Source: a virus. Taken from it: a DNA stretch of 60,851 nt. Made by a program: the position numbers and the translations under genes. The stretch is taken from IMG/VR virus record IMGVR_UViG_3300045988_119927. One strand, 5' to 3'. Shown here piece by piece: positions 33,522 to 60,621 of this stretch (its first letter is position 1; each line of letters starts with the position of its first letter). The notes under the pieces are model-generated. The model searched no databases. It was not told the origin of the DNA and saw only the letters and a list, made by a program, of their open reading frames with translations.

Positions 33522-33563
33522 TGGGCCGCCCTGCCGGGCAACGAAAACAGAGGAGAAATCAAA

Positions 33564-33842
33564 ATGGAACAGAGAGATTTTATGACCCGCGCAAAGCAGC
33601 TGGTGGTGGACTACTTCAACAGTCATGTGGACGTGACCGACGGCAAGAAGCTGACGATGGAGGATGTGTTCATCGTATGGTTCTCGAAGACTTTGCAGAA
33701 CTGGAAGGCGCTTGTGAGCACCACTGTATCCGACGGCATGTACTATGAGATCACCCACAATGGCGACAAGAAGGAGACCTACCTTGACGTGTATAAGAAG
33801 TGGGAGAACCAGTGCATTGCGGACGGGGACACTGCACGTTAA
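33564..33842 (+). CDS. Hypothetical protein
   Basis: 92 aa. RBS GGAG is present. Confidence 0.5.
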   Translation: MEQRDFMTRAKQLVVDYFNSHVDVTDGKKLTMEDVFIVWFSKTLQNWKALVSTTVSDGMYYEITHNGDKKETYLDVYKKWENQCIADGDTAR

Positions 33843-33854
33843 CGGAGGAGTGGC

Positions 33855-34205
33855 ATGGACAGCATCCTGACAAGCGTAAAAAAGCTGCTGGGGATCGCCG
33901 AGGAATGCGAGGACTTTGATGCAGACATTGTAATGTATCTGAACAGCGTATTCATGGTGCTGACCCAGATGGGGGTAGGGCCGAAAGAAGGCTTTGCCAT
34001 TACTGGAAAAGAGGAACGTTGGAGCCAGTTTATTGCCGACCCGGTGAAGGCGGCAGCCGTGAAAGCATATGCCGCCATGAAGGTGCGGCTGATGGGCTTT
34101 GATGTGCCCCAAAGCAGCTCTACCCTGGACGCACTGAAAAATGCCGCTGCTGAAATGGAGTGGCGGCTGAACGTGGAGCACGACGACACATGGCCAGCAG
34201 TGTAA
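33855..34205 (+). CDS. gp6-like head-tail connector domain protein
   Basis: LTSVKKLLGIAEECEDFDADIVMYLNSVF resembles the N-terminus of Phage_connect_1. Confidence 0.4.
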   Translation: MDSILTSVKKLLGIAEECEDFDADIVMYLNSVFMVLTQMGVGPKEGFAITGKEERWSQFIADPVKAAAVKAYAAMKVRLMGFDVPQSSSTLDALKNAAAEMEWRLNVEHDDTWPAV

Positions 34206-34372
34206 CAAAGCGGTGGATCGAGCGACTGACTGAAACACCTGTAAAAAAGCAATGGCTTGATGCGGTGATGAAGGATTTTTGCACAGACTGCGCACGGTGT
34301 GGGACCTGCGAATGCCCTGAAATGGAAGCGTGTTTCTATACCCTTGACAAGACCTTTTACCGCCCAAAGTAA
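34190..34372 (+). CDS. Small Cys-rich protein
   Basis: 60 aa. It contains CTDCARCGTCECPEMEAC. Confidence 0.35.
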   Translation: MASSVTKRWIERLTETPVKKQWLDAVMKDFCTDCARCGTCECPEMEACFYTLDKTFYRPK

Positions 34373-34407
34373 GGGCTCCTACCTTATTATAATAGGAGGT
34401 TAGAAAT

Positions 34408-36150
34408 ATGGCGCTCTCGAACACGGCCACGCCGATCTACTACGGCCGTTTTCGGGAGGCCGTAATGCGTGGCGAGATCCCCGTATGTCGGGAGATCAGC
34501 ATGGAGATGAACCGGATCGACGACCTGATCGCAAACCCGGGGATTTACTACGATGATAAAGCCGTAAACGGTTTTATTGCTTTTTGTGAGGATGAGCTGA
34601 CTCTGACCGATGGCGGAGACGTGAAGCTTCTGGACAGCTTTAAGTTATGGGCCGAAGAGATCTTTGGCTGGTACTACTTTGTGGAACGAAGCGTGTATGT
34701 GCCTCATGAGCACGGCGGAGGCCACTACGAGACCCGCAGGATCAAGAAGCGTCTGGTGCAAAAGCAGTATCTGATCATCACCCGTGCAGCGGCGAAGACC
34801 ATGTATCTGGAGTTTCTTCAGGCGTACTTTCTGGTGGCGTATACCACCACGACCCGACAGGTGACCACTGCCCCCACCATGAACCAGGCAGAGGAAGTGC
34901 TGGCTCCGCTGCGGACTGCTCTGGCCCGGGCCAAGGGGCCTGTGCTGAAGTTTATGACCGAAGGGAGCCTGCAGAATACCACTGGGTCGAAGGTGGATCG
35001 GGTGAAGCTGGCCAGCACAAAGAAGGGCATCGAGAACTTTGTCTCCAACAGCCTGTTGGAGGTGCGGCCTATGACCATTGAGAAGCTCCAAGGCCGTCGA
35101 GACATGGTGGCCACAGTGGACGAATGGCTGAGTTGCGACATCCGGGAAGACCCAATCGGTGCCATCGAGCAGGGTGCAGCCAAGAACGAGAACTATCTCA
35201 TTGTGGCGGCCAGCTCTGAGGGTACGGTACGAAATGGATGCGGTGACGACATCAAAATGGAATTGATGCAGATCCTGAAGGGAGAATACATCAATCCCCA
35301 CGTCTCCATCTGGTACTACAAACTGGACTCTATTGACGAAGTCGGCAAACCGGAGATGTGGCTGAAGGCGAACCCGAACCTCGGAAAGACCGTGACCTAC
35401 GAGACCTACCAGCTGGACGTGGAGCGCGCAGAGAAATCGCCCAGCTCCCGGAATGATATTCTGGCAAAGCGCTTCAACCTGCCCATGGAGGGATATACCT
35501 ATTTCTTCTCGTACGAGGAGACGCTGTGTCATCGGCACCGTGATTTCTGGCAGATGCCATGCGCTATGGGAGCTGACCTGAGCCGGGGCGACGACTTCTG
35601 CGCCTTTACGTTCCTATTTCCGCTTTCCAACGGATATTTCGGGGTGAAGACGCGGGACTACATTACCAGCTACACCCTAAGTCAGCTGCCCATCTCCAGG
35701 CGGCAACAGTATGAGGAGTTCATGCAGGAGGGGACGCTGTTCGTCTTTGACGGAACCATCCTCGACATGATGCAGGTATACGACGACCTTGACGCCTTTA
35801 TCCAGCAGAACGAATACGACATCCGGGCCTTCGGGTATGACCCATACAACGCAAAGGATTTCGTGGAGAGGTGGGCGACCGAGAACGGCAACTTCGGCAT
35901 CACCAAGGTCATTCAGGGCGCGCGGACGGAAAGCGTGCCGCTTGGCGACTTAAAGAAGCTAAGCGAGCAGCGAAAGCTCATCTTCGACGAAAAGCTGATG
36001 CAGTTTGCCATGGGGAACTGCGTGGCACTGGTGGACACGAATGGAAACCGGAAGCTCTACAAACAGAGGCAGGACCAGAAAATCGACGCCGTGGCCGCCA
36101 TGATGGACGCCTATGTAGCGTGGAAACAGAACCGGGATGCATTTGAGTGA
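34408..36150 (+). CDS. terL: Terminase large subunit
   Basis: 580 aa. It lies upstream of the portal. It has the Terminase_1-like layout of an ATPase N-half and a nuclease C-half. Confidence 0.85.
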   Translation: MALSNTATPIYYGRFREAVMRGEIPVCREISMEMNRIDDLIANPGIYYDDKAVNGFIAFCEDELTLTDGGDVKLLDSFKLWAEEIFGWYYFVERSVYVPHEHGGGHYETRRIKKRLVQKQYLIITRAAAKTMYLEFLQAYFLVAYTTTTRQVTTAPTMNQAEEVLAPLRTALARAKGPVLKFMTEGSLQNTTGSKVDRVKLASTKKGIENFVSNSLLEVRPMTIEKLQGRRDMVATVDEWLSCDIREDPIGAIEQGAAKNENYLIVAASSEGTVRNGCGDDIKMELMQILKGEYINPHVSIWYYKLDSIDEVGKPEMWLKANPNLGKTVTYETYQLDVERAEKSPSSRNDILAKRFNLPMEGYTYFFSYEETLCHRHRDFWQMPCAMGADLSRGDDFCAFTFLFPLSNGYFGVKTRDYITSYTLSQLPISRRQQYEEFMQEGTLFVFDGTILDMMQVYDDLDAFIQQNEYDIRAFGYDPYNAKDFVERWATENGNFGITKVIQGARTESVPLGDLKKLSEQRKLIFDEKLMQFAMGNCVALVDTNGNRKLYKQRQDQKIDAVAAMMDAYVAWKQNRDAFE

Positions 36151-36153
36151 GAA

Positions 36154-36450: not shown

Positions 36451-36506
36451 TCGGATTTTAGAAAAGAGATCTCAGGGAATAAAAAATCTGAATGATAGAA
36501 CACCGC

Positions 36507-36545
36507 AAAACGCATCGACTTAATGGCCGGTGCGTTTTTTGTTTG
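36507..36545 (+). terminator. Hairpin / terminator between terL and the next gene
   Basis: AAAACGCA ... TGCGTTTT followed by TTGTTTG. Confidence 0.5.
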
Positions 36546-36560
36546 CAAAGGAGGTAAAGT

Positions 36561-37181: not shown

Positions 37182-37197
37182 TCTGGAGGAAATCAAA

Positions 37198-38454
37198 ATG
37201 GCATCACAAACCTTTGGCTCCAGACTGAGACACGCCTGGAATGCGTTTTTGAACCGGGACCCTCCAGGGAAGATATACTACGGCGGCGGATACAGCTACC
37301 GCCCCGACCGGGTGCGGATGAACCGGACAAGCGACCGCACCATCATTTCGGCCATAGACACCCGCATCGCTATGGATGCAGCAGCCATTACCATCAATCA
37401 CGTAAGGCTCGACGAAAACGGACGCTACAGCGAAACCATTTCGTCGGGCCTTGATTCTTGTCTGAACCTTTCTGCCAACATTGACCAGACCGGACGGGGC
37501 ATGCGGTTCGATATGTTCCTGTCCATGCTGGATGAGGGCGTCATCGCCGTGGTGCCGGTGGACGTGGAGCTGAACGAAGCGACCGGCGAAATGGACATCC
37601 AGTCCATGCGGGTGGGCAAGGTGAAGGAGTGGTACCCTGCCGACGTGCGGGTAGAGCTCTACAACGAGAAGACCGGCCAGAAGGAAGAGGTGACCCTGCC
37701 GAAGGACCGGGTAGCCCTGATCGAGAACCCCTTCTACGCCGTGATGAACGAGCCCAACGGAACCATCCAGCAGCTGACCCGGAAGCTCCACCTCATGGAC
37801 GTCATCGACGAGCAGGTGGGAGCCGGGAAGCTCGATCTTATCATCCAGCTGCCCTACGTCGTGAAGAGCGAGGCCCGCAAGAAGCAGGCCTTGGAGCGGC
37901 GGCAGGAGATCGAGGACCAGCTGGCAGGCTCGAAGTACGGTGTGGCTTACACGGACGGCACGGAACACATCACCCAGCTGAACCGCAGTCTGGAAAACAA
38001 TGTTCTGAAGAGTGTGGAATACCTGACCAACATGGCATACAGCCAGTTGGGTATCACACCGGAGATCATGAACGGCACTGCGGACGACAAGGTGATGACT
38101 AACTACGAGAACAGGACCATCGAGCCCATCGTAGCGGCCGCCGTGGATGAGTTCAAACGGAAGTTCCTGACGAAAGAGCAGCGAGATGAAAAGAGTGAGA
38201 GCGTGCTGTTCTTCCGCGACCCGTTCAAGCTGACGCCGGTGTCGGCTGTGGCAGAGATCGCAGACAAGTTTACCCGCAACGAGATCATGACCTCGAACGA
38301 GATGCGGCAGGCCATCGGCATGAAGCCCTCGAAGGACCCGAAGGCGGATGAGCTGCGGAATGCGAACATCAGTCGGTCGAACGAGGAAGCTGTAGGACAG
38401 CAGCAGATCGTTGCGGACGGGAAAGATGCAGATGCAAGAATGCTTGGATATTAG
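37198..38454 (+). CDS. Portal protein
   Basis: 418 aa. It lies between terL and the protease-capsid gene. Confidence 0.6.
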   Translation: MASQTFGSRLRHAWNAFLNRDPPGKIYYGGGYSYRPDRVRMNRTSDRTIISAIDTRIAMDAAAITINHVRLDENGRYSETISSGLDSCLNLSANIDQTGRGMRFDMFLSMLDEGVIAVVPVDVELNEATGEMDIQSMRVGKVKEWYPADVRVELYNEKTGQKEEVTLPKDRVALIENPFYAVMNEPNGTIQQLTRKLHLMDVIDEQVGAGKLDLIIQLPYVVKSEARKKQALERRQEIEDQLAGSKYGVAYTDGTEHITQLNRSLENNVLKSVEYLTNMAYSQLGITPEIMNGTADDKVMTNYENRTIEPIVAAAVDEFKRKFLTKEQRDEKSESVLFFRDPFKLTPVSAVAEIADKFTRNEIMTSNEMRQAIGMKPSKDPKADELRNANISRSNEEAVGQQQIVADGKDADARMLGY

Positions 38455-38476
38455 AAAGGGGATGCTGAATTTCAAA

Positions 38477-40255
38477 ATGGCTATCGATTATGATTGCAGT
38501 GGATGGGCTACGAAGGCCAACACCCGCTGTTACGACGGACTGACCATCGCGCCGGACGCCTTTAAGGAGTGCGACGGCAAGACCGTGCCGATGGTGTACA
38601 ACCACGACCACTCGAGCGTGGACAATGTCATCGGCCACTGTCTGCTGAAAAACCGGCCCCAGGGCGTATACTGCTACGCCAAGTTCAACGATACGGACAC
38701 CGGCCGGACGGCCAAGGCCTGCGTGGAGAACGGCGACCTGAACGCCTTTTCCATCTATGCCAACGGTCTGCAGAAGGTGGGGAAGACCGTGAAACACGGC
38801 TTTATCCGGGAAGTAAGCCTCGTACTGGCAGGCTGCAACCCGGGTGCGCTCATCGACGAGGTAGTGAAGCACAGCGCCGATGAAGATTACGATGAGGGCG
38901 AGGCCTTTATCTACAACGACGAGGGCCTGAGCCTGACCCATGGGCTGAACCCGGAGGGCAACCCGCTTGAGGAGCTGACCCACAGCGCCGACGACGGAAA
39001 CGACACGAAACAGGAGGATGCCGGAATGGCGGACGAAGAGAAAAACGGTAAGACACTCAAGGAAGTGTACAACAGCATGACCGACGAGCAGAAAGAATGC
39101 TGTCATGCGCTTGTTGGCCTTGTAATGGAAGCGGCAGACAGCGAGGACGGCGAAGACGACGGTGAGGAGGATACGACCGTGAAGCAGAATGTATTTGACC
39201 GTGACACCACTGAGACCGTGCTGAAGCACAGCATCGGCGACATCAACGCTGTTATCAAGGGTGCCAAGAGCAGCGGCACCATGAAGGCGGCTTTCGAGAA
39301 CTCGGACATCACCGGTGAGGAGCTGGCCTACCTGAGCCACGGCATCGACAACGTGGAGTGGCTGTTCCCCGACGACAAGGTGCTGGACAACCCGCCCCGC
39401 ATCATCGACAAGGACCAGACCTGGGTCGGCAAGGTGATGAGCGCTGTGCATCACATCCCCTTCAGCCGCTTCAAGAGCATGTTCGCTGACCTGACCGAGG
39501 AGGATGCACGTGCCAAGGGCTACATCAAGGGTAACTTCAAGAAGGAACAGGTCTTTGGCCTGCTGCGCCGCTCCACCAGCCCCACCACCGTCTACAAGAA
39601 GCAGAAGATGGACCGCGACGACGTCATCGACATCACCAGCTTCGACGTCATTGCATGGCTGAAGAGCGAGATGCGCCTGAAGCTGAACGAGGAGATCGCC
39701 CGTGCCATCCTGATCGGTGACGGCCGCCCCGCTGCCAGCGAGGACAAGGTGGACGAGAACTGCATCCGCCCGGTGTTCAACGACGCAGACCTGTTTACCA
39801 TCAAGGTGCAGGTGTCCACTACCGGTCTGACTGCCGTGGAGGACAAGTACAAGGCCGCCATCAAGAGCATCCTGCGCTCCCGCAAGGAGTACAAGGGTGC
39901 CGGCACCCCCACCCTGTTCACCACAGAGGATGCCCTGACCGAGATGCTCCTGCTGGAGGACACCATCGGCCACGCTCTGTATGCCGACGAGGCTGCGCTG
40001 GCCCGCAAGCTGCGTGTCTCCAACATCGTGACTGTGCCTCAGATGGAAGGCATGAAGGGTGCCAAGGGCGGCGACCTGTTCGGCATCATCGTCAACCTCT
40101 CTGATTACACGGTTGGCGCAGACAAGGGCGGCGCTGTCTCCATGTTCGACGACTTCGACATCGACTTCAACGCCATGAAGTACCTGATCGAGACCCGCTG
40201 CTCCGGCGCACTGACCACCCCGTACAGCGCCATTGCTGTTGAGTGGGCTGCTTAA
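38477..40255 (+). CDS. Prohead protease (HK97/S78-like) fused to major capsid protein
   Basis: The N-domain is VYNHDHSSVDNVIGH...IREVSLVLAGCNPGA. An acidic linker follows, then a capsid-like domain of about 340 aa. Upstream in-frame starts exist back to 38411. Confidence 0.75.
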   Translation: MAIDYDCSGWATKANTRCYDGLTIAPDAFKECDGKTVPMVYNHDHSSVDNVIGHCLLKNRPQGVYCYAKFNDTDTGRTAKACVENGDLNAFSIYANGLQKVGKTVKHGFIREVSLVLAGCNPGALIDEVVKHSADEDYDEGEAFIYNDEGLSLTHGLNPEGNPLEELTHSADDGNDTKQEDAGMADEEKNGKTLKEVYNSMTDEQKECCHALVGLVMEAADSEDGEDDGEEDTTVKQNVFDRDTTETVLKHSIGDINAVIKGAKSSGTMKAAFENSDITGEELAYLSHGIDNVEWLFPDDKVLDNPPRIIDKDQTWVGKVMSAVHHIPFSRFKSMFADLTEEDARAKGYIKGNFKKEQVFGLLRRSTSPTTVYKKQKMDRDDVIDITSFDVIAWLKSEMRLKLNEEIARAILIGDGRPAASEDKVDENCIRPVFNDADLFTIKVQVSTTGLTAVEDKYKAAIKSILRSRKEYKGAGTPTLFTTEDALTEMLLLEDTIGHALYADEAALARKLRVSNIVTVPQMEGMKGAKGGDLFGIIVNLSDYTVGADKGGAVSMFDDFDIDFNAMKYLIETRCSGALTTPYSAIAVEWAA

Positions 40256-40335: not shown

Positions 40336-40596
40336 ATGCTGAAACCCTACTACGAGACTGGCCACGACCTGCATGTGGCAAACTACGTTGCCTACCTGCA
40401 CACCGACAAGAAGCTGTACGAGGACGAGGCGCACAAGACCCAGGCGAATAAGGATGACGTGGAGAAGGCCTTTAAGCTGGGCCGCCTGATGATCGTGGAC
40501 GGCGCCAAGACCTACCTGCCTATCGCTCTGCTGGCTGCCGGTGTGGTGGTGTATGACGGCACTACCGCTACGACCTGCACCGTGGCAGCGGAGTAA
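40336..40596 (+). CDS. Hypothetical head protein
   Basis: 86-aa ORF after the capsid gene. Confidence 0.45.
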   Translation: MLKPYYETGHDLHVANYVAYLHTDKKLYEDEAHKTQANKDDVEKAFKLGRLMIVDGAKTYLPIALLAAGVVVYDGTTATTCTVAAE

Positions 40597-40779
40597 AAGC
40601 AGGTCATCGAGTTAGTAATGGCAAACTTACCTGCCGGACAAAATTCAAAATGGTGACGAACTGAGCGCTGCCAGTGGCGGAAACAGCGAAATGAGGAACT
40701 GGCCGGGGTCAGCGAGACGCGAGCGACAGTGAAGCGGCTGCTGGGCACCCCAACTCGGGTTCCTTAGGGAGGATCTACT

Positions 40780-42630: not shown

Positions 42631-43221
42631 ATGCTGACCATCAAAATAGCCGGAACACAGAGCTGGGACCCACAGAAGGCCGAGTTCCGGTACGGTGAGC
42701 CCGTTGAGCTGAGGTTAGAGCACAGTCTGCTCTCCCTGGCTAACTGGGAAAGCAAATGGCATATTCCGTTTTTGTCGAACGTCGGAAACCTGACGGCTCA
42801 ACAGCAGATGGACTATATCCGCTGTATGACCGTGACGAAGGGGGTTGACCCCGAGGTATACCGGCGGCTGACGAGAGAACAGATGAATGCCATTAACATA
42901 TATATGGACGACCCCATGACCGCTACCTGGTTTCGGGGCGAGCCAAAGCCGAACGAGCCCAGGAACGGGAAGACTGTAAAGCAGAAGCCCCGCCCCAGGC
43001 GAGGAGGCACAGAGACCACTGCGGAGGTGCTGTATTACCAGATGTTCCAGCTTGGGATCCCCAAGGAATGTGAGAAATGGCACCTGAACCGGCTGCTGAC
43101 GCTGCTGCGGGTTGGCCAGGAAGCCAACAACCCGCCCCGGAAAATGAGCAAAGCCGAGGCAATGGCTCAGCAGAGGATGCTGAATGAGCAGCGGAAAGCA
43201 AAGCTGCACACGAGGGGGTAA
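42631..43221 (+). CDS. Gp15-like tail assembly protein
   Basis: LEHSLLSLANWESKWHIPFL resembles Phage_Gp15. Confidence 0.45.
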   Translation: MLTIKIAGTQSWDPQKAEFRYGEPVELRLEHSLLSLANWESKWHIPFLSNVGNLTAQQQMDYIRCMTVTKGVDPEVYRRLTREQMNAINIYMDDPMTATWFRGEPKPNEPRNGKTVKQKPRPRRGGTETTAEVLYYQMFQLGIPKECEKWHLNRLLTLLRVGQEANNPPRKMSKAEAMAQQRMLNEQRKAKLHTRG

Positions 43222-43224: not shown

Positions 43225-43611
43225 ATGCCAAAGGTGATCGTGTGCCGACAGAAAGGCGACTGGAAGAAAACAAAGGGATTTTTGAAGCGGTGCTCGGCGC
43301 TGAAGCTGGACGATATTCTGGCTCAGTATGGCCGGGAGGGGGTAGAGGCGCTGTCGAGGGCCACCCCCAAGGACACCGGGAAGACCGCCGCAAGCTGGAG
43401 CTATGCCGTACACCGGGACGAGAACAGCATCACCATTACATGGTCCAACTCCAACATCGTGGATGGAGTGCCCATTGCGGTGATCCTGCAATACGGACAC
43501 GGCACCCGGAATGGCGGGTATGTAGAGGGAGTGGATTACATAAACCCGGCAATGCGGCCTATTTTTGAGAGGATCGCAGAACGGGCATGGGGTGAGGTGA
43601 GAACAGAATGA
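43225..43611 (+). CDS. HK97 gp10-like protein
   Basis: It has ATPKDTGKTAASWSY and VILQYGHG. Confidence 0.5.
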   Translation: MPKVIVCRQKGDWKKTKGFLKRCSALKLDDILAQYGREGVEALSRATPKDTGKTAASWSYAVHRDENSITITWSNSNIVDGVPIAVILQYGHGTRNGGYVEGVDYINPAMRPIFERIAERAWGEVRTE

Positions 43612-49600: not shown

Positions 49601-50567
49601 TGCCACCGCCAATGTGGCCTCCGGTGTGACCACCGTTGCCAAGGCTGCGGGAGCCGCCAAGGTTGCTGCCACCGCTGCCGGAGCTGCCACCTCGGGAACT
49701 CTGGCCAAGGTGGGCATGGGCGTTGCCAAGGTGGCCGCCAGCCTCGGCCCTCACGGACTGCTGGTGGGTGCCTGTGTTGCAGGTGCGGCCCTGGTAGGCA
49801 CTGCCGTGGTGAAGAACTGGGACAAGGTGAAGGCCGGTATCGGCAAAGCCTGGGACTGGATCAAGGAGAAGGCTTCGGGACTCTGGGACGGCATGAAGCG
49901 CATCGGCTCGAACCTCGTGAGCGGCCTCGGAAAAGGCGTGAAAGCAGGTGCAAAGACCTTTGGCAGCTTTATCATCTCGCCATTTGCAGGCATCATCAGC
50001 GGTGTGAAGAAGCTGTTTGGCGTCCACTCGCCCTCGACGGTATTTGCCGGGATCGGTGGCTACCTGATGGAAGGTCTGGCGAACGGCATCACGAACACCG
50101 CTGATGGCGTGGACCGGAGCCTTGAGGCCGTGGCAGATGGCGCTTTGGACATTGCCCAGAGCAGCGCCATGAGACTGCTGGACGTGCTGAACGACGAAAG
50201 CGACCCCAGCATCCAGCCGGTGGTAGACCTGACCAATGCAGAGAACGCTCTGGACTGGATGGACTCCCGCCTGGCAGGAGACCGGGCCGTGACCCTGAGC
50301 GCAACCCGCTCGGCAAACCTTGCCGGGACGGTGAACCAGAACGCCAATCGTCAAAATGGAAAAGCAGACCCCAACGACCCGGAGGCCCTGTCGGCCAGCG
50401 GGAACCGTGATGTGGTGGATGCGATCCAGAGCATGGGCGAGCGGATCGACGGTGTGGCAAGGGCTGTGGCCAACATGAAGGTCGTGATGAACAGCCGGAA
50501 GCTGGTAGGCGAGATCAAGAGCGACATGAACACCGCCCTTGGCGAGCTGGCGGAGAGAGGACGGTAA
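43608..50567 (+). CDS. Tail tape measure protein
   Basis: 2319 aa with coiled coils, a central multi-TM Gly/Ala-rich block and three HSPS motifs. Confidence 0.9.
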   Translation: MSREVDQRVVELQFNNANFEKNTKKSMDSIDRMMEKLQFKGAEKGFEKLDAAAEKVDFATMNRSLDTLQQKFSALDIMAATVLVNITNKAINAGEKLVKSLSLDQITSGWNKYAEKTSNVQTIMNATGKSIDQVNGYLNKLMWYSDETSYSFSEMTSALSQMTAAGGNIDKMIPMIMGIANATADAGKTGFAFQSTIRNLTQSYSAGHLQLQDWKSLNLMGTATKALKQELIDTAEELGVIKKGEVTIASFESSLQKKWANTEVMEKTFGKYASMMEAAYELTQKNKGMTSSEALEQLKGQYGELAERAALAAQQATSFAQAIDSTKDAVSSKWMAVFETLFGNKEEATDTWTELANRLYDIFVPSIDALNDRMKAGLDTGWQQMLSNELGDQGNAYTYALEQVALATGALTEKQIEEAGSFGAALQENGVSADTLRQALDEARTSTEKLLALSDKELDAQGYDKDAIQKAHDKFVELNEAVQNGTLDLEGYAEAIGRVSGRAHLIQGLWNIMDAIGKLVTPIKEAFNEIFPPADGDRIYTIAERFDLLTKKLIISDETAANIKKTFEGVFSVIHVGVNMLKTVVQTAANVLSAAVPLSDVLLGMTASIGGFVSSVDESLDPLEALGSMITGFVQTIAPVLYSFGKEADVVFSNFANGAKDAFNSFDPERMKDFITGGLSVGILASVKSFLDGIKSVGESAKGIIGGIKDTIDSLGEAIEAWKEAKKSETLITIAKSIGIIAASLAVVSMIKPERLSASMEAMTGVFLGLLGVMKALALISKEVSSLKLMAVSTGMMAVSSAVLVLSGALKVISTIDKSNLLASVVALGGVMAELTVVGAILSKDEARFLKGATGLIAFAGAVGILTTALKALSGLKLEEMAKGLGGISGIAAVLVLAAKLMNGVKFGIGNGAAFLMMADSMNLLVSAFKSFGEMNWTEIGKALTTAGASIGVFVLALNLAKGTLGAAMALTTMAAAVNLLVPAIKELGSLSLTEMGMAILAVAGAFTALGVAAAILAPLTPVIVALSLSISALALSIGALLALNSAAMFIGNLASSLTLLQNLNFQVFIEALKSAAWLVVEFITGIIKGLAEVASTLATSIAKIIEAVCSAIVLSAPAIGEALYVAGTTLIDVIIKLLDYIWLKCEPALNDLWDKFTGLVKKKAENFSLLDLLGLKWENPFAPFLDELEHGDSFMAGLYQQMTGTGKYATEGFANGETDKDALAQVKQASSNVANTAVETMKYDLDQHSPSKVMAEIGRFVTLGLAEGIGDQNALAKAKAAMLNVATGIRTVFTNFWGIHSPSDLAMSDAENILEGAVLGMCDPEARQKLYDESYNAASEVKGGVGKALDEAATLVQDKMQGIYAAFKMDPLGSGSNPLRNGVETARKQFETAIQDSTLIPGKKGIQTANTDTTLGVNDIAAAAKSRLAGYFGAFGDYYKKAVDDITPGTTDPTTKTKASKTGKTLAETLAEEYSKKLKANKYLQDALSKETTLWELQSEHSVTNEELLAKRTEVVTKQIELQADRVAIAQQQYDTLLARVGAGNDKTKDAYNTLLDEKANLEKLRQSRHSDIWGDVLSRYENDAKTAEDEYDLWVSMYEDTATVAERSNRQMMQINKKIDAQAKVVTAAEEEYTKLKEEFGEQSQQTQVAYRKYLEEQKEQQELINELEKAQLTQFANQITRYEKEAKIVSNRQKMLEKLYDDGSLSERESAYEQAVEKYGEGSKEARRAAMQGTMSSLMGVGAAMRNMSTSLKKLTEYQKTYDFYVAQGKKDSEEALDALAELQDEQYNFVGFAESLASAFDMSENGKQAMMQLGYTISKNWKPIYNGFNQVWKKVNPAFAENLTNLIGLYSREGASETMAATMNAVVSAMRGDWASAVASGLTAVLDIVGTDFGRTLSEAIGNALRSAFSGNGLFAQLLSKLLGGMNPGGSGGGGFFSKALDFIKRLLGRKSTGVAGGGSGISKWLSAGKSALGLGKAAKAATDLVPVLSSVGTATANVASGVTTVAKAAGAAKVAATAAGAATSGTLAKVGMGVAKVAASLGPHGLLVGACVAGAALVGTAVVKNWDKVKAGIGKAWDWIKEKASGLWDGMKRIGSNLVSGLGKGVKAGAKTFGSFIISPFAGIISGVKKLFGVHSPSTVFAGIGGYLMEGLANGITNTADGVDRSLEAVADGALDIAQSSAMRLLDVLNDESDPSIQPVVDLTNAENALDWMDSRLAGDRAVTLSATRSANLAGTVNQNANRQNGKADPNDPEALSASGNRDVVDAIQSMGERIDGVARAVANMKVVMNSRKLVGEIKSDMNTALGELAERGR

Positions 50568-51118: not shown

Positions 51119-52405
51119 ATGAAGACGATACCACATGGGATCACCATTGGTGACACACATACCTGGAGGGATCTTTATCTGATCCCTGTTTGTCGGCCGA
51201 TCGTGCAGCCGCCTACGGAAAAGACCATGACCCTTGAAGTGGAGGGCATGAGCGGCGTGGCTGACCTGAGCCACGGACTGACAGGGTACCCGGTGTTCAG
51301 TGACCGGGAAGGAAACTGGCAATTCTACGTAGACACCGACCGGTGGAGAGAGAAAAACAACTTCTGGGGGCCGGTGGGAAACCTGGCGTACCAGGATATT
51401 ATGGCCCGGCTGAAGGAAAAGATGGCCCGGCCGTTCCAGACGCGGATCGTTCTGGACGACGACCCGCTTTTTTACTGGGTGGGACGCATCTGGGTGAGCG
51501 AGGCTCCCAGCCAACAGTACAACCACACCAAGATCACCCTGCAATACCGGCTGTACCCCTACAAGTACCTGCTGGCAGAGGACGGAGACGACTGGCTGTG
51601 GGACCCCTTTTGCTTTGAGACCGACCTGGCCACCGTGAAGATGCACGGCGTGACCCTGCCGGCCGGGACGAGAGAGACGTTTCCGCTGGTATTTACGGAC
51701 AAGCCCAGCGCCGTGTTTGTGACCAGCAGTGGAGCGGCGACCTCGAACATGCAGAATCAAAATGGAGTGGACTACACCCTGCTGAGCCAGGAGTCCATGC
51801 CCACGGCCCGCTTTGACTACCTGAAGACCTACAGCTCCGGGGGTACGAGCTATGAATGCCGGCTGCAGACCCTTGTGATGCCTCTGGTGACAAAGCAGTA
51901 CGACATAGCCGTTATGGGGCTGAACTTTACCGTGAGTCCTGTAAGTACCGGGACAGCTACGGTATCCATCCGGAAGAAGGGGACCAGTGTGCTGATGGCC
52001 AGTGCTACGGTGCCTATTACCAGCACAGTGAATGTTCTGTCTCAGCCGCATATCGAGCTGACGGCAGATCTGAGCGCTGAGCTTGCCAAGAACACCGCCT
52101 ACGAGATCGTGGTGGAGGCCACCGGCAAGATATACGCCCCCAACATCCCCAAGGATGCCCTGACAGAGAACGACTACTTCGACTTTGGCACAGGGGCTGC
52201 GGCGCTGGCACCGGACTGCGGCGGCTTTGAGCTGTTCTGTGGGTTCGTCCGGTTTTACGCCGGTGAGGGCGCTGTGCTGAAGCCGGACGTGAAGACCAAC
52301 ATTGGCATCGTGGGTACTGCGCTGAACACAAACGGCCGTGTGGTGGTGGTGCAGGCGCAGGAGGACACCACGGTGAGCATCGACTACCGGCCGGCGTACC
52401 TGTAA
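51119..52405 (+). CDS. Distal tail protein (Dit-like)
   Basis: ITIGDTHTWRDLYLIP...LEVEGMSGVADLS matches the Sipho_tail-like N-terminus. Confidence 0.55.
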   Translation: MKTIPHGITIGDTHTWRDLYLIPVCRPIVQPPTEKTMTLEVEGMSGVADLSHGLTGYPVFSDREGNWQFYVDTDRWREKNNFWGPVGNLAYQDIMARLKEKMARPFQTRIVLDDDPLFYWVGRIWVSEAPSQQYNHTKITLQYRLYPYKYLLAEDGDDWLWDPFCFETDLATVKMHGVTLPAGTRETFPLVFTDKPSAVFVTSSGAATSNMQNQNGVDYTLLSQESMPTARFDYLKTYSSGGTSYECRLQTLVMPLVTKQYDIAVMGLNFTVSPVSTGTATVSIRKKGTSVLMASATVPITSTVNVLSQPHIELTADLSAELAKNTAYEIVVEATGKIYAPNIPKDALTENDYFDFGTGAAALAPDCGGFELFCGFVRFYAGEGAVLKPDVKTNIGIVGTALNTNGRVVVVQAQEDTTVSIDYRPAYL

Positions 52406-52420
52406 AGGAGATATTTCAAA

Positions 52421-53707
52421 ATGAGATATAAGGTATACGCCGGTCAGGTATCGGTGAAGTTTACCAACAGCAGCACGGCCCGGTTCAACTGGACGAAAAA
52501 GGTGCTGGTGTACGACTCTTACGGCGACTCGGTGGAGGGCGAAGAGACCCAGGGAATCGTGGCAGACCCCAGCGTGGAGCTGGAGAACAAATCGGCAGGA
52601 AGTTTTTCGTGCCGGGTGCCGTACCAGGCCGAGACCCGCTTTGGCCGGGTGAAGAACCCTTACTACGACGACTTTGTGATGGGCAGCACCTGGATCATGG
52701 TGGAGGAGGACAGCGAGTGCATCTTCTTTGGCCGTGTGACGGAGTGCGAGCTGGAGTTCAATCTGGACAAGACGGTGACAGCGGACGGCATCCTGAACGA
52801 GCTGGGGCAGATCAACACCCGACTCTCGGCCAGCTCCTACAACAGCTGCTCGGAATCCAGTCTGCTTTCCATCGTAATGAATGCCGACAAGAGCCGGAAG
52901 GGGGAGAACCCTGCCAACTGCATGATGCGGGGCAAGGTGACGGTGGTCAACCGTTCGGTGGACACCAGTGATAGCGGTGACCAGTTTGGCAGCCTGTGGA
53001 GCATCCTGAGCACCTATCTGTTGGACAAGGACGAGGGATATTTGCGGCTTCGGCTGGCTAATGACCCGGGCACCGAGGACTACTTTTTTTACTACGATTA
53101 TCTGAAATCTGAGGATGTGCCCAGCACCACACAGAGCATCGAATACGGCGTGAACATGCTGGACTTCGTGCTGAATGAGAAGTGCAGTTCGGATCTTGTA
53201 AACAGCGTAACGGCCCACGGCATCACCACGGTGAAGAAGGGCTGGTGGATCTTTAAGAAGATCAGTTACAACGCCATCTCCAGCACATCGGAGAATGCGT
53301 TGTCGATCCAGCGGTACGGCCTGCGCTCCCGGCATATTTATGTGGATGGCAAGGCCTCCAGCTACAGTACCCTGAGTTCTGCCGCCAGTGAGGAGCTGGC
53401 CAAGTACAAGCAGGAGGCAGAACCCACCCTGACCGTCCGGGCCTTTGACCGGAAGGATATGGGGGAAAAGGTGGACAAGCTGGGGTATCTGCTGCGGACC
53501 CACATCCTGAGCAACCCCCACAGCTTTGATATGTGGATGGTATGCACCAAGGTGCGCCTGCCTCTGGACGCCCCGGACAACAAGGACTTTACCTTTGGGC
53601 TGACCAGCGCCTCGCTTTCCCGGCGTCAATGGACCGTCGGAAACCTGGCGTCGGTGCTGAAAGACAAGGTCGTGGGCGCTATCAGCTACCTGAACAGTGT
53701 AGGGTAA
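52421..53707 (+). CDS. Tail-associated protein (Tal / minor structural protein)
   Basis: 428 aa. Assigned by position after Dit. Confidence 0.5.
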   Translation: MRYKVYAGQVSVKFTNSSTARFNWTKKVLVYDSYGDSVEGEETQGIVADPSVELENKSAGSFSCRVPYQAETRFGRVKNPYYDDFVMGSTWIMVEEDSECIFFGRVTECELEFNLDKTVTADGILNELGQINTRLSASSYNSCSESSLLSIVMNADKSRKGENPANCMMRGKVTVVNRSVDTSDSGDQFGSLWSILSTYLLDKDEGYLRLRLANDPGTEDYFFYYDYLKSEDVPSTTQSIEYGVNMLDFVLNEKCSSDLVNSVTAHGITTVKKGWWIFKKISYNAISSTSENALSIQRYGLRSRHIYVDGKASSYSTLSSAASEELAKYKQEAEPTLTVRAFDRKDMGEKVDKLGYLLRTHILSNPHSFDMWMVCTKVRLPLDAPDNKDFTFGLTSASLSRRQWTVGNLASVLKDKVVGAISYLNSVG

Positions 53708-53749
53708 AAATTCAAAATGGACCTTCTGAAGGAGTAAGGTGATTATCGG

Positions 53750-55840: not shown

Positions 55841-55853
55841 GGAGGATTTCAAA

Positions 55854-56024
55854 ATGGACAAGATCTGGGCAAACAGGTTGGTCGCCGGGACTAAGACCTG
55901 GGCAGAGATGCCCGCAAGCCGCCGCCCCGGAGTCAAAGCCGAGCTGGCGAGGCGGGTGACCGACGGCGAGATCAGTGAAGAGGATTATAAGCGCATCACC
56001 GGGGAGGACTACTACAATGGATAA
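55854..56024 (+). CDS. XkdX-like small protein
   Basis: VTDGEISEEDYKRITGEDY matches the XkdX-type C-terminus. Confidence 0.45.
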   Translation: MDKIWANRLVAGTKTWAEMPASRRPGVKAELARRVTDGEISEEDYKRITGEDYYNG

Positions 56025-56805
56025 ACTGCTGGAGCTGCTGGAAAAGCTTGTGCGGGCCATCTTTGGTCCGGGGGACAAGCAGGATGCCGAAGAGGCAAAG
56101 CCCGCACCGGAACCTCCCGAACCCCCCGGGGCAGAGGCTGTGACCGGCTGGGAGGGAGACCTTCCTTACCGGTTCATCGACGTGAGCCGGTGGCAGGGAA
56201 TCATCAAAATGGAGGGTTGGGCGCAGGTAAAAGCGGCAGGCTATAAAGGCGCGATGCTGCGGGCCGTAGGGAACCGCAACGGTGTCCCCTACATCGACCC
56301 CACCTTCGAGGACAACTATACCAATGCAAAAGCGGCAGGGCTGGATATTGGCGTCTACTACTACACCGACGCCATCACTGAGAAGCTGGCTGACGAAGAG
56401 CTGGCTGCACTGCGGCAGGCGCTGCAGGGCAAGGAACTGACCATGCCGGTGGCGGTGGACATGGAAAATGAAACGCTTGCCGTGCTGAAGCCGAACGACC
56501 TTACCAACCTCGCGGCCTACCACCTCGAGCAGATCGAGAAGATGGGGTTCTTCGCCCAGCTCTACACCTACACGAGCTATGCCAACGTCCATCTGGACAT
56601 GGCAAGGCTGGCCGGGCGGTGGGACATCTGGCTGGCGGACTACACGGGCAAGACCCCGAAGGTGCAGTTCAAGTACAGCGCTCACCAGCACAGCAGTGAG
56701 GGCCGCGTGCCGGGCATCAACGGGCCGGTGGACCTCGACGTCACGACGGTGAACTACCCGAAGATCATCAAGGCAAAGGGGCTGACCCGGCTCCGGGAGG
56801 CATAA
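56017..56805 (+). CDS. Endolysin, GH25 muramidase
   Basis: It has FIDVSRWQG...GAMLRAVG...DPTFEDNYTNAKAAGLDIGVYYY, with a Pro-rich N-terminal extension. Confidence 0.8.
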   Translation: MDKLLELLEKLVRAIFGPGDKQDAEEAKPAPEPPEPPGAEAVTGWEGDLPYRFIDVSRWQGIIKMEGWAQVKAAGYKGAMLRAVGNRNGVPYIDPTFEDNYTNAKAAGLDIGVYYYTDAITEKLADEELAALRQALQGKELTMPVAVDMENETLAVLKPNDLTNLAAYHLEQIEKMGFFAQLYTYTSYANVHLDMARLAGRWDIWLADYTGKTPKVQFKYSAHQHSSEGRVPGINGPVDLDVTTVNYPKIIKAKGLTRLREA

Positions 56806-57516: not shown

Positions 57517-57548
57517 AAATAACCGCTTATGAACCAAAGGAGGACACT

Positions 57549-58007
57549 ATGAACCCTTATTACGGTGCATATCCTCCGCAGGGCCTTCCTCAAGGAGTGA
57601 ACGGTCTGGGAGGATGGCAAAACAGTCAGCCCATGGGGTACCCCGGGCTGGGAAATCAAAATGGATACCAGCAGGCTTCTGTCCCGGCACTGCCCGGGCG
57701 GGTCATCCGTGATATTGCGGAAGTCCGTCCCAACGAGGTGCCGAACAACGGAAGCCCGGCCATCTTTCTGAAGGATGACATGAGCTGTATCTATGTGAAA
57801 TACCTCTCGAACGTAGGAAAAATCGAAACGATGGTCTTTGCCCCGACGACGCCGGAAACCGAAGCCGCTCCTGCAAACGCGGAGCTGGAGGATATTCGGC
57901 AGAAGCTGGACGAGCTCCTCAAACGGACGCCAAAACGCACAAAACCTTATCACAAGCCGTACCGAGGAGATAAGAAGGGAGAAGACCATGAACCAGAACC
58001 GAAATAA
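57549..58007 (+). CDS. Hypothetical Gly/Gln/Pro-rich cargo protein
   Basis: 152 aa with a low-complexity N-terminus. Confidence 0.45.
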   Translation: MNPYYGAYPPQGLPQGVNGLGGWQNSQPMGYPGLGNQNGYQQASVPALPGRVIRDIAEVRPNEVPNNGSPAIFLKDDMSCIYVKYLSNVGKIETMVFAPTTPETEAAPANAELEDIRQKLDELLKRTPKRTKPYHKPYRGDKKGEDHEPEPK

Positions 58008-58209
58008 TCCCATTGCCGGAATGCTGGGCCAGCTGCTCCGGCAGAACCCTCAGATGCAGTCGAACCCGCTGGCTCAGAACATGATCTCCGTCATTCAAAA
58101 TGGAGACGATGCGAAGGGCGAACAGATCGCACGGAACCTCTGCGAGAGCTACGGCGTGACCCCGGAAGAGGCCTACGCAAGGGCGATGCAGTTTTTCCAG
58201 AGACGTTGA
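57988..58209 (+). CDS. Hypothetical small protein
   Basis: The ATG follows GGGAGAAGACC. Confidence 0.4.
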   Translation: MNQNRNNPIAGMLGQLLRQNPQMQSNPLAQNMISVIQNGDDAKGEQIARNLCESYGVTPEEAYARAMQFFQRR

Positions 58210-58340
58210 ACTGAAAAGGACGTTAAACATATCTCTTTGATGTGAATTGGGCTTTTGCTCAGGATACGCGCGGCCTGAAAGAAGGTCCAGTGAACATATC
58301 CGAACATCCATTCACTGATATTTCCGAAGGAGGAAATGAT

Positions 58341-59162: not shown

Positions 59163-59233
59163 ATTCAAAATGGAGGGCGCTGGGCAAGGAGCCTGGCGCT
59201 CTTTCTTTTTGATATTCAGAAGGAGGAACGAAC

Positions 59234-59638
59234 ATGATCGAGATTTCCAATTCGACCGCCCAGACTCTGACCCCGGGGCAGGCTATTGCGTTTGACGTGA
59301 CCAACCTGAAGACGCGCTGCACTGCTGAGTGCCACAAGACCGGCATGACGGATGTGCGGCTGCGGCTGAACGGGATCTACGAGATCGTCTTTTCGGGCAA
59401 CATTGGTGGCGTGGCAGCAGGTGCCGTGCAGCTTAGCATTTCCGCAGGGAATGCAGTGCTCCCGGGCTCTGCCATGATCTCCACCACCGCTGCGGCCGGT
59501 GACCTGAACAACGTAGCCAAGACCATGCTGGTAGGCAACGGCTGCAGAATGTATGATATTATCCGTATCGTGAACACCGGCACGACCAACCTGACCGTTG
59601 GGCCTGGTGCAAATCTTGTGGTCAGACGGATCGCATAA
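59234..59638 (+). CDS. BclA C-terminal (C1q/TNF-like) domain-like protein
   Basis: 134 aa. Its pattern ...GIYEIVFSGNI...LSISAGNAVLPGS...IVNTGTTNLTV...ANLVVRRIA parallels the BclA C-terminal domain. Confidence 0.4.
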   Translation: MIEISNSTAQTLTPGQAIAFDVTNLKTRCTAECHKTGMTDVRLRLNGIYEIVFSGNIGGVAAGAVQLSISAGNAVLPGSAMISTTAAAGDLNNVAKTMLVGNGCRMYDIIRIVNTGTTNLTVGPGANLVVRRIA

Positions 59639-59651
59639 GGAGGGCTGAAAC

Positions 59652-60230
59652 ATGGAGGATCGTTGCATGATGAGCCTGCGCTCGATGATGGACACTCTGG
59701 TGGATGCCCAGAAAGTCGAGCTGGCGAAGGGCGTGGACTCTGCAGACACTGAAGAGTCCGGGAAAGTGATCGACATGATCAAAGACCTGGCTCAGGCCCA
59801 GAAGTATTGCTGGGAAGCCTGCTACTACAAGACCCTGATCAAGGCCATGGAGGATGCGGACTACCAGCGGATGGGGTACACCCAGACGCCCAAACAGCAG
59901 GCCTTTATGAAGGACTGGCTGCGGGACCCGGAGGAGTTCGAGAACCGGATGCGGGACAAGGGCCACGGCGAATGGCCTTTGAGCCGCAGAGGGGAGTTCC
60001 GGCATGAGGAAGGCCAGTACGGTCGGCCTTACGGGGAGTATCTGGAAGCTCGGAAGCACTACACGGAAAGCCACTCTGCCATGGACAAGGCGGATATGGA
60101 CAAGTACGCTGGGGAGCATCTGATGAGCGCCATGACCGCTATCCGTACCATCTACGGCGATGCCGACCCTGAGCTGCGGAAGAAGATCAAGGCGGACTTC
60201 TCCAAGCTCGTGGCGGACATGCCGACGTAA
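59652..60230 (+). CDS. Hypothetical protein
   Basis: 192-aa ORF. Confidence 0.45.
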   Translation: MEDRCMMSLRSMMDTLVDAQKVELAKGVDSADTEESGKVIDMIKDLAQAQKYCWEACYYKTLIKAMEDADYQRMGYTQTPKQQAFMKDWLRDPEEFENRMRDKGHGEWPLSRRGEFRHEEGQYGRPYGEYLEARKHYTESHSAMDKADMDKYAGEHLMSAMTAIRTIYGDADPELRKKIKADFSKLVADMPT

Positions 60231-60237
60231 TTTCAAA

Positions 60238-60621
60238 ATGGATCGGTTTATGATGAACGGGATATTCTGGCGAGTGCTGTACACAGACCAGGATGATCCT
60301 GTACTCATAGACCGCACCGGCAGAAGGACTCTTGCCGTGACAGATCCCAGAACGCATTGCATCTGGCTTGCTAAGGGACTACACGGCAGGAGTCTGGAGC
60401 GGGTGCTGTTGCACGAGCTGGGACATGCTACCATGGTAAGCTACGGGATGCTGCCAGAGCTGCACCGCATGGTGAGACCGGCCTATTGGATTGAAGCTGA
60501 AGAGTGGATCTGCAACCTGTTAGCAGACTATGGCGCAATGATATTTTGGAAAGCGTCTGACCAACTCGGCTATGATATTTTGGAATGGCAACCGCCCTAT
60601 GCAAGGGATGGCATAGCATAA
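60238..60621 (+). CDS. Zn metallopeptidase (HExxH; ImmA/IrrE- or SprT-like)
   Basis: It has LLHELGHATM preceded by TDPRTHCIWLAKGL. In the circular map it lies next to int. Confidence 0.55.
   Translation: MDRFMMNGIFWRVLYTDQDDPVLIDRTGRRTLAVTDPRTHCIWLAKGLHGRSLERVLLHELGHATMVSYGMLPELHRMVRPAYWIEAEEWICNLLADYGAMIFWKASDQLGYDILEWQPPYARDGIA

Follow-up and report, generated by a model that had tools for sequence, protein, structure and literature searches.

Why should one short word, TCAAAATGG, be repeated along a single strand of a phage genome, and what reads it there? The genome in question is the IMG/VR virus record IMGVR_UViG_3300045988_119927, a stretch of 60,851 nucleotides (nt) that is analysed here at its full length (the window) and numbered along the + strand. 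An earlier note on this DNA, made from the letters alone, had listed 21 exact + strand copies of the word, and all 21 coordinates proved to be exact. The late arm of the window has 79% DNA identity to Faecalibacterium phage FP_oengus, with a gene order common to both, and the window is an Oengus-like temperate siphophage of Faecalibacterium. The reading that we favour, with a probability of about one half, is that TCAAAATGG is a cis-acting signal on the sense strand of the late genes, which would serve as an initiator-type promoter for the phage's own YonO-like single-chain RNA polymerase. We infer both parts of this reading, the polymerase as the reader and the sites as transcript starts, from sequence comparison.

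The word is strongly enriched and is polar with respect to strand. It occurs 21 times on the + strand and once on the − strand, at 5559..5567, so that the earlier statement that there is no reverse-complement copy does not stand. A second-order Markov model predicts 0.38 copies on the + strand, and in 100 dinucleotide-preserving shuffles the two strands combined held 0.68 copies on average and never more than 4. The region 33559-60241 contains 18 of the observed copies, and the remaining three are at 3294, 4009 and 5916. The density that had been proposed for this 27-kb late arm, approximately one copy per 1.5 kb, is confirmed by a mean spacing of 1.57 kb, and the spacing is more even than random (coefficient of variation 0.58, P = 0.007). 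The word is also sharp, with 21 exact versus 7 one-mismatch copies on the + strand and 6 one-mismatch copies on the − strand; on the − strand of the late arm there are neither exact nor one-mismatch copies. Two of the one-mismatch copies fall in the late arm, TCAAAATAG at 42641..42649 (+), 10 nt into the open reading frame (ORF) 42631-43221, and TCAAAATGA at 52416..52424 (+), where ATG 52421 starts ORF 52421-53707. Both had been reported as near-copies and are real, but a third, placed at 31468, is instead a one-base insertion variant, TCAAAAATGG, at 31469-31478. An alignment of the flanks of the window copies adds information only as AAW upstream and A downstream, giving AAW-TCAAAATGG-A, and no −35-like or other distal element is conserved around the word.

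Of the 21 copies, approximately 11 occupy gene starts or spacers and 10 are intragenic, with the ATG of the word falling in frames 0, 1 and 2, as had been claimed. The earlier note had also argued that selection acts on the nucleic acid, and had named codon-preserving shuffles as the result that could overturn this. When codons were shuffled synonymously within each gene, 1.73 +/− 1.16 intragenic copies were obtained (maximum 6 in 500 shuffles) compared with 13 observed. Because of these shuffles, the use of all three frames and the conservation in relatives described below, the excess of TCAAAATGG is not a product of protein sequence or codon usage, and selection is at the level of the nucleic acid. 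An origin by chance, or as a coding artefact of codon usage or a repeated peptide, could draw on the copy in the terminase gene terL, which lies in a conserved peptide. However, neither the dinucleotide nor the synonymous-codon shuffles reproduce the pattern, and non-coding positions as well as three frames are used; a coding artefact is already refuted by the shuffles and the frame usage, and what probability remains for this explanation is negligible.

The positions of the copies follow the late genes. A tyrosine integrase is encoded on the − strand at 185-1405 and nearly all remaining genes of the window are on the + strand. These + strand genes include three DUF6353 paralogues, a 1333-residue primase-polymerase (12325-16326), a helicase and a 922-residue protein (28389-31157); downstream of the last of these come, in order, an HNH gene, terL (34408-36150), the portal gene (37198-38454) and a protease-capsid fusion gene, and then a 2319-residue tape measure gene (43608-50567), tail genes and a GH25 lysin. 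The first late-arm copy, at 33559..33567 (+, as for all copies in this and the next paragraph unless stated), carries ATG 33564, which starts ORF 33564-33842 (phrog_918). The second, at 35252..35260, lies inside terL, where it is read ATC AAA ATG GAA, and is also found there in five further family genomes (6/9). At 37193..37201 the word supplies ATG 37198, the start codon of the portal gene, and at 38472..38480 it supplies ATG 38477, at which the protease-capsid fusion gene (to 40255) probably begins; this site recurs in several family genomes. The copy at 40645..40653 is in the spacer between an ORF end at 40596 and an ORF start at 40780. Five copies then lie in the tape measure gene, at 44601..44609 (frame 2), 45053..45061 (frame 1), 47710..47718 (frame 0), 49506..49514 (frame 2) and 50351..50359 (frame 1), followed by one at 51757..51765 in the tail ORF 51119-52405 (frame 1).

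Further along the late arm, the copy at 53712..53720 is in a spacer, 5 nt past the stop of ORF 52421-53707 and 38 nt upstream of a start at 53750 that is led by a Shine-Dalgarno sequence (SD). At 55849..55857 the ATG of the word (55854) opens a 56-codon ORF just ahead of the endolysin, with an SD, GGAGG, upstream, and the copy at 56204..56212 is in frame within the GH25 endolysin ORF 55975-56805. The next two are at 57656..57664, within ORF 57549-58007 (frame 1), and at 58095..58103, between ORFs and 93 nt past the stop at 58007. The last two both lie 3 nt past a stop and are without an upstream SD: 59165..59173 follows the stop at 59162 in a spacer, and 60233..60241 follows the stop at 60230, with ATG 60238 opening a 127-codon ORF. 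The start codons at 33564, 37198, 55854 and 60238, which the word had been said to supply, are all borne out by the ORF positions. Ahead of the late arm, the copy at 3294..3302 provides ATG 3299, the start of ORF 3299-3703, with an SD, GGAG, 7 nt upstream, and its homologue in FP_oengus, at 3724, likewise has its ATG as an annotated start (3729). The copy at 4009..4017 is within ORF 3725-4120 with the ATG out of frame (+1). At 5916..5924 the word is in a spacer, 8 nt past a terminator-like hairpin (5881-5908), and its GG opens the GGAGG SD of a gene with ATG 5937; FP_oengus has the same layout at 6070. The sole − strand copy is inside an unannotated − strand ORF, 5225-5737, which gave zero Pfam and zero PHROG matches.

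Conservation in related phages, which had been named as a check, was found in FP_oengus, in 80 metagenomic relatives and in seven distant phages. FP_oengus has 17 + and 1 − strand copies, at 2.4-6.1 kb and 37-58 kb with zero between; its late arm is partly homologous to that of the window, and some of its copies are in non-homologous tail genes. The 80 IMG/VR relatives, in which the polymerase is 84-100% identical and counts cover 10 kb on each side of the polymerase gene, have 183 + and 20 − strand copies, always beginning a few kb downstream of that gene. At aligned sites in relatives with no more than 97% identity, the motif columns are on average 0.95 conserved compared with 0.88 for the flanks, and at the terL site the values are 1.00 and 0.81 (80.5%) in 61 relatives. 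The columns of the sites are thus better conserved than their flanks, yet site 33559 is lost in some relatives, and the sites are therefore under purifying selection with some turnover.

For the wider family we compared nine genomes: the window, FP_oengus, Avazak, ReqiPepy6, Scap1, Circum, BitterVaud1, D_HF5_2C and P162. The 8-mer TCAAAATG occurs on the + and − strands respectively 5 and 0 times in Avazak (Gordonia), 9 and 0 in ReqiPepy6 (Rhodococcus), 3 and 0 in Scap1 (Streptomyces), 6 and 0 in Circum (Arthrobacter), 6 and 0 in BitterVaud1 (Bifidobacterium), 8 and 1 in D_HF5_2C (an oral contig) and 11 and 0 in P162 (Lactococcus). The total for these seven distant genomes is 48 + and 1 −, with nearly all copies in late arms and late-arm Poisson P values from 1e-5 to 2e-7. 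The description of the word as a late-arm motif holds in so far as it is mostly confined to late arms, but it is not peculiar to the window genome and is family-wide; this conservation, the − strand copy and the second, complementary motif described below were all absent from the earlier note.

Three sites, each in a different coding context, recur between genomes. The first is inside terL, approximately 850 nt from its start, and reads ATC AAA ATG GAA in the window, FP_oengus, Avazak, ReqiPepy6, Scap1 and P162 (6/9). The second, shared by the window, FP_oengus, Avazak, Scap1 and Circum (5/9), coincides with the start codon of the protease-capsid gene, which is an annotated start at 42055 in FP_oengus, 13034 in Avazak, 5699 in Scap1 and 8036 in Circum. 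The third is in the gene after the major tail protein, as TCA AAA TGG GAG, in Avazak, ReqiPepy6, Scap1, Circum and BitterVaud1 (5/9). In the GC-rich Scap1 the lysine is encoded by AAA at both intragenic recurrent sites and a neighbouring conserved lysine by AAG. The actinophage consensus is longer, TCAAAATGGGAGT. Copies in spacers just after a stop, 18-50 nt upstream of the next start, account for 4/9 in ReqiPepy6 (4401, 6969, 10302 and 19378) and 2/5 in Avazak (5534 and 10504), and at several of these GGGAG doubles as the SD. Overall, approximately 30% of copies supply an annotated start codon; approximately half are start codons or lie 18-50 nt upstream of starts, and the other half are deep inside genes.

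This distribution bears on the possibility that the word is aimed at the host, as a polar motif like Chi or KOPS/SRS by which the phage would handle a host helicase-nuclease or translocase. An exact, strand-polar and over-represented short word would suit such a role, and by the rules for Chi the + orientation would be the one read by a nuclease entering at the right, last-packaged end. However, the same 9-mer is found in phages of Actinobacteria and Firmicutes, whose Chi sequences differ, and it is limited to one genome module. Five copies of one ~10-kb host flank, which represent one host locus and were found by exact look-up of the integrase, have 0-1 copies each, and there is none in FP_Epona, which infects the same host species but is unrelated and has its genes mostly on the + strand. 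Over-representation in the host is not seen in this flank, nor is the word specific to one host lineage, and a host-wide motif (Chi, KOPS or an uptake sequence) was rejected on these two comparisons, the host side of which covers a ~10-kb flank rather than a whole genome. We consider this explanation very improbable, and a Chi-like host motif and a coding artefact are both effectively excluded. The reader of the word must be phage-encoded: phages of two host phyla use it, and neither the host flank nor FP_Epona contains it.

The candidate reader is the 922-residue protein encoded at 28389..31157 (+), a putative YonO-like two-barrel RNA polymerase with a SGADFDGD catalytic loop and helix-turn-helix (HTH) domains at both ends, an N-terminal one that is Myb-like and a C-terminal one that resembles sigma-70 region 4 (E = 4e-10). 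The SGADFDGD loop is invariant in an alignment with four distant homologues, and homologues in FP_oengus and relatives are annotated as RdRP-like or putative RNA polymerase. The family has been described as YonO/RdRP-like by HHpred (95.7% to RdRP), and as a signature of an actinophage group together with Lactococcus and Faecalibacterium phages, in a study that does not mention a promoter (Koert et al., bioRxiv 10.1101/842583). Profile comparison to YonO aligns R.PH...D.DGD at a marginal E = 0.097, and comparison to AR9 beta' gives E = 0.29; these direct links are weak, and the assignment as a polymerase would thus rest on the catalytic motif and the literature. Homologues with 34-45% identity are found in 251 sequenced phages, of Arthrobacter, Gordonia, Streptomyces, Lactococcus, Curtobacterium, Microbacterium, Rhodococcus and Bifidobacterium, and in human-associated contigs. 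TCAAAATGG is present in 9/9 of the polymerase-bearing genomes examined and absent from FP_Epona, and the polymerase is inseparable from the rest of the conserved module: it always co-occurs with TerL, which is 55-72% identical within the polymerase-bearing set and at most 27% outside it, and no close relative lacks it, so that the phyletic pattern cannot single out the polymerase as the reader. The structural module is itself unusually well kept across host phyla, as TerL is 55-72% identical between the Faecalibacterium phage and phages of Actinobacteria and Lactococcus, the next TerL matches being at most 27%, compared with only 34-45% for the polymerase.

A second word, TGATATTT (core ATATT), is distributed in a complementary way. 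In the k-mer statistics of the window it stands out on the + strand even more than TCAAAATGG, with 38 copies there and 0 on the − strand, compared with 1.4 expected, and with its flanks it reads SAW-TGATATTT. Thirty-five of the 38 copies are in a field at 1367..31536 (+), which spans the early and replication genes and has almost no TCAAAATGG, and the other three are at 58316, 60539 and 60573; the two words interleave at 58-61 kb and 1.4-7.5 kb. FP_oengus has 36 + and 2 − copies and the 80 relatives 669 and 5, the − strand being depleted relative to the Markov expectation. Codon shuffles gave 2.8 intragenic copies compared with 22 observed. The word often holds the TGA stop of the upstream gene or sits between SD and ATG, and five copies are inside the primase-polymerase gene. 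Its core, ATATT(Y), is strand-skewed across most of the family: + and − counts of ATATT are 107 and 2 in Avazak, where the copies are mostly intragenic and in all frames, 79 and 5 in ReqiPepy6, 24 and 0 in Scap1, 203 and 31 in BitterVaud1 and 255 and 125 in D_HF5_2C. Circum (96 and 107), P162 (242 and 221) and the control FP_Epona (18 and 21) are unskewed. The + strand enrichment of ATATT is regional and complementary to the TCAAAATGG region, and the − strand depletion is genome-wide. We also considered TGATATTT as a sigma-70 extended −10 box and rejected it, as the key last T is not conserved, there is no −35 element and most copies are intragenic.

The constraints on the reader of TCAAAATGG can now be stated: polarity of the signal, a tie to one gene module rather than to the whole replicon, a strong bias to gene 5' ends and a fairly even density in long genes. 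A promoter or initiator for the family's own polymerase directly satisfies the first three of these, as well as the need for a phage-encoded reader. In such a mechanism the polymerase, possibly via its fused HTH domains, would recognise an element of 9-13 bp, melt the A/T run and start within or just after the element. Transcripts would then begin either with an SD at the extreme 5' end (TCAAAATGGGAG-N5-7-ATG) or with the start codon itself, as leaderless or near-leaderless mRNAs, and with copies placed every ~1.5 kb, long genes included, fresh polymerase would be loaded repeatedly over the 27 kb of the late operon. Every junction copy is compatible with initiation within the element, whether the resulting mRNA is SD-first or leaderless. 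The earlier note had suggested a short promoter or restart site for a phage RNA polymerase, a strand-specific nick site, an RNA processing site or a modification target. The first fits best, because the motif tracks the polymerase-bearing family across phyla, the sense strand of late arms and gene 5' ends. A modification target is without support, as no methyltransferase was seen and the strand polarity would be left unexplained.

Promoters read by phage and viral polymerases offer several parallels. T7 promoters are many, lie on the same strand and are in some cases intragenic. The class II and III promoters of the T7 group resemble the copies of TCAAAATGG in being many copies of one conserved word on the coding strand, every 1-3 kb and some inside upstream genes; they are read by a phage-encoded polymerase, as the copies here would be. 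The order of an A/T run and then GG(G)AG (here TCAAAAT followed by GGGAG) also resembles the layout of phage promoters, in which an A/T-rich melting segment precedes G-rich initial bases. In contrast, the T7 promoters are ~23 bp long and upstream of leaders, and their single-subunit Pol-I-like enzyme is unrelated to the two-barrel type; the word here is 9-13 bp, often lies over the start codon and has half of its copies deep in genes. The poxvirus TAAATG initiator doubles as a start codon, and the late and intermediate initiator TAAAT(G), used by a virus-encoded two-barrel polymerase, is similar to TCAAAATGG as a short A-run plus ATG. Poxviruses differ in their eukaryotic-type translation and in poly(A) leaders made by slippage, of which there is no sign here, the likeness being one of sequence. 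The T4 late promoter, TATAAATA, is 8 bp long. Together with the promoters of the phiKZ and AR9 non-virion polymerases it shows that very short elements (4-8 bp) without a −35 can be numerous, partly intragenic and co-oriented with late genes, although their sequences are different and they are read by gp55 with the host core or by multisubunit phage polymerases (through template-strand uracils in AR9). As with promoters of phage-encoded RNA polymerases, a candidate polymerase is encoded in the same genome as TCAAAATGG, and the copies are co-oriented with the genes and avoided on the antisense strand.

Two further systems are nearer in enzyme type. Thermus phage P23-45 uses two motif-defined promoter classes, AT-rich and GC-rich, for two two-barrel polymerases (PMC10770324), and these partition its genome as the TCAAAATGG and TGATATTT fields do here. 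The P23-45 transcription start sites are mapped (23 in total) and lie upstream of genes, whereas here one polymerase gene is seen and the sites, read from sequence, are 2-3 times more numerous. YonO, which transcribes the late genes of the Bacillus prophage SPbeta (PMC5467207), is like the 922-residue protein a single-chain two-barrel polymerase of a temperate phage, with the catalytic-loop R.PH...D.DGD common to both. It differs in its one late-operon start site, in having no fused HTH domains, in a homology that is marginal (E = 0.097) and in the absence of TCAAAATGG upstream of yonK. A literature search returned no relevant paper on the word TCAAAATGG or on promoters or transcript starts of this polymerase family.

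A number of observations weigh against a promoter. Half of the copies are deep inside genes, five of them in the tape measure gene, and a promoter in such a position is of no use to the gene around it. YonO itself starts late transcription from one promoter (PMC5467207), and there is no TCAAAATGG in the SPbeta segment examined, including the interval between yonN and yonK, though the two enzymes are very distant. The FP_oengus copy at 2441 is immediately 5' of a terminator-like hairpin. The terL site is in a conserved peptide, DTIKMEL, which Circum and D_HF5_2C keep without the word; its conservation is therefore partly at the protein level, and that site alone is moderate evidence. A start downstream of the A-run would delete the ATG of the motif, so the model needs leaderless or near-leaderless mRNAs, and most genes with a motif-borne ATG retain a normal SD. 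The last point is what would be expected for translation from longer transcripts, and favours an element that acts in RNA, whereby UCAAAAUGG in the late polycistronic mRNA would be the site for a phage endoribonuclease or RNA-binding protein that makes or marks 5' ends beside SDs and start codons, for processing, stabilisation or translational control. Sense-strand polarity, placement at gene 5' ends, overlap with start codons and a very sharp sequence without distal elements would all suit such an element. However, none of the conserved genes was recognised as encoding an RNase or RNA-binding protein, the site has no accompanying RNA structure, and evenly spread, out-of-frame intragenic copies would cut or burden coding mRNA; we consider it unlikely.

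The orientation of transcription is also not separable from that of replication or packaging in the genomes examined, which again tells against the promoter, because no genome with reversed gene blocks was found: there are none in ReqiPepy6, Avazak, Scap1, P162 and BitterVaud1, and Circum has one short reversed gene. The − strand copies in relatives fall where − strand ORFs are longer, and those ORFs are without Pfam or PHROG support. The word could instead be a strand-specific site in DNA, either a nick site in virion DNA or a preferred start site for the primase-polymerase on the lagging-strand template. Strand-specific interruptions are present in the virion DNA of T5 and of Pseudomonas phage tf, as sequence-defined sites on one strand, and TCAAAATGG too lies on one strand in the window and in the distant genomes. 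The exactness of the word, the many intragenic copies in all frames and a mean spacing of ~1.5 kb, which is more even than random and of the size of Okazaki fragments, are in line with this. The family shares the 1333-residue primase-polymerase (12325-16326) and HNH endonucleases adjacent to cos, and HNH enzymes of such a cos-adjacent type can be site-specific nickases. Against this, the motif is limited to late arms with another word elsewhere, and replication or nicking has no reason to follow gene modules; confinement to a module and bias to gene starts are not reported for T5, whose interruptions are compared here with sites known from sequence. Neither function would require the marked excess of copies over start codons and immediately ahead of SDs, and positional conservation across phyla suggests a tie to particular genes. 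We regard a DNA site as quite unlikely.

The gene junctions raise one more comparison, with the stoperators of mycobacteriophage L5, which are many asymmetric sites in one orientation to transcription, at gene junctions and over start or stop codons. By analogy, a phage protein bound to TCAAAATGG in an orientation-dependent way would act as a roadblock to, or a modulator of, elongating RNA polymerase, and the late genes would be timed or silenced in this way. The temperate lifestyle of the window phage and its many asymmetric, single-orientation sites, often over start and stop codons at junctions, are shared with L5 and other Cluster A phages. The stoperators, however, copy a repressor operator and serve lysogeny, and in the window neither a gene for a repressor nor a copy of an operator-promoter was identified. 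The same word occurs at the same places in Scap1, P162, Avazak, Circum and ReqiPepy6, which have no annotated integrase in the records or parts examined, and prophage silencing would therefore be irrelevant there. This pairing of temperate phages with a cognate repressor and operator copy is thus not seen, and the explanation is distinctly improbable. The start-associated sequences of Cluster K are similarly short, asymmetric, single-orientation sites at gene junctions, but their short distance upstream of the start is fixed and they do not occur within genes; of the copies here, 10/21 are intragenic, in all frames, and the position of the others varies, over the ATG, over the SD or 18-130 nt upstream.

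Several features of the genome were noted alongside the motif. The same integrase is found on two kinds of contig, beside host genes in an integrated form and on ~60-kb contigs in which the late arm is joined to the integrase end, and the window is therefore a complete temperate phage genome. A cos region is predicted at 31455..31540 (+), where the window aligns with the genome ends sequenced for Scap1 and P162. It contains a GC hairpin, GGAGGGGTCTC...CCCCCTC, with TCAAAAATGG in the loop, and then the likely left end, with a junction between ...GCGCCGGTCT and TTGATATTTCCCCGGAGGGAAAATTGATATTT (in a second notation, between ...GCGCCGGTCT and TTGATATTTCCCCGGAGGG). From this alignment, the left end of the virion DNA would probably begin ~350 bp past the polymerase gene, which would make that gene the last large one at the right end. 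TGATATTT forms one tandem pair at 31506 and 31529, by the predicted cos end, and another at 60539 and 60573, where the late arm finishes; the pair at cos is present in essentially all relatives. A tie between the second motif and the cos nick was considered and rejected, as the predicted left end of the window and the end of Scap1 adjoin ATATT and those of Avazak, Circum and P162 do not. The three DUF6353 paralogues of the early region (6230-7009, 7288-8325 and 9457-10443) are all present in FP_oengus. There are two tRNA genes, one at 2524-2596 (anticodon loop CTTAACT, the anticodon not being assignable by ARAGORN) and a tRNA-Met (CAT) at 18495-18573. Near-identical terminator-like hairpins (GAGCTGTAGAGAAATCTACGGCTC and then a T-run) sit between small early genes at 2455-2486, 2923-2956, 4811-4838, 5881-5908, 7470-7497 and 8767-8794, with a sequence kept beyond the requirement of the stem.

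A third sense-strand repeat, CGCGAAAA-N12-(T)TTATGGAGG, occurs 11 times on the + strand (2241, 2500, 2618, 3236, 4571, 5088, 7173, 8342, 22397, 27423 and 27491) and 0 times on the − strand, mostly after terminator-like hairpins, and its ATGGAGG adjoins or forms the SD of the next gene. Analogous repeats are TATAATGAGACCCCTA in Avazak and Scap1 and CCCTATAATGAAAGGA in P162, in which a −10-like box directly adjoins the SD; a box in that position is unusable for a sigma-70-type start 7 nt downstream. The second motif extends to phages of other Clostridia. A scan of genome contigs with the integrase returned only Lachnospiraceae prophages, at ~50% identity, and beside the integrase in these Lachnospiraceae/Ruminococcus prophages (L086-L097) TGATATTT occurs 33 times on the strand of the phage genes and 8 times on the other, over 212 kb.

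Taken across the whole family, TCAAAATGG may be an initiator promoter that overlaps or abuts the translation start and is used by YonO-like, HTH-bearing polymerases, and the word would have stayed unchanged since before the split between the host phyla. A set of short 'ATGR-ended' start signals, read in one direction and giving leaderless or SD-first mRNAs, would then comprise this word, the ATATT word and the CGCGAAAA...TTTATGGAGG / TATAATGAG repeats. We advance this wider reading tentatively, as one that falls a little short of even odds. The polymerase family is represented in thousands of contigs from gut metagenomes and in over 250 sequenced phages that infect Actinobacteria and Firmicutes, and YonO-type enzymes, with two barrels in a single chain, are seen as models for the ancestor of all cellular RNA polymerases. 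The promoter of YonO is undefined, and whether the enzyme finds promoters alone is left open (PMC5467207). The present analysis offers a precise and testable candidate, a 9-13 bp word kept across host phyla paired with an enzyme that has its own HTH domains, and Lactococcus, Gordonia and Arthrobacter phages are tractable systems in which to test it. Should the sites instead be nicks or RNA processing sites, they would still be a new genome feature common to the family. If the promoter reading is true, the word and the polymerase would be a compact orthogonal promoter-polymerase pair, and would explain how late genes are expressed in a Faecalibacterium prophage that ranks among the most prevalent in the human gut.

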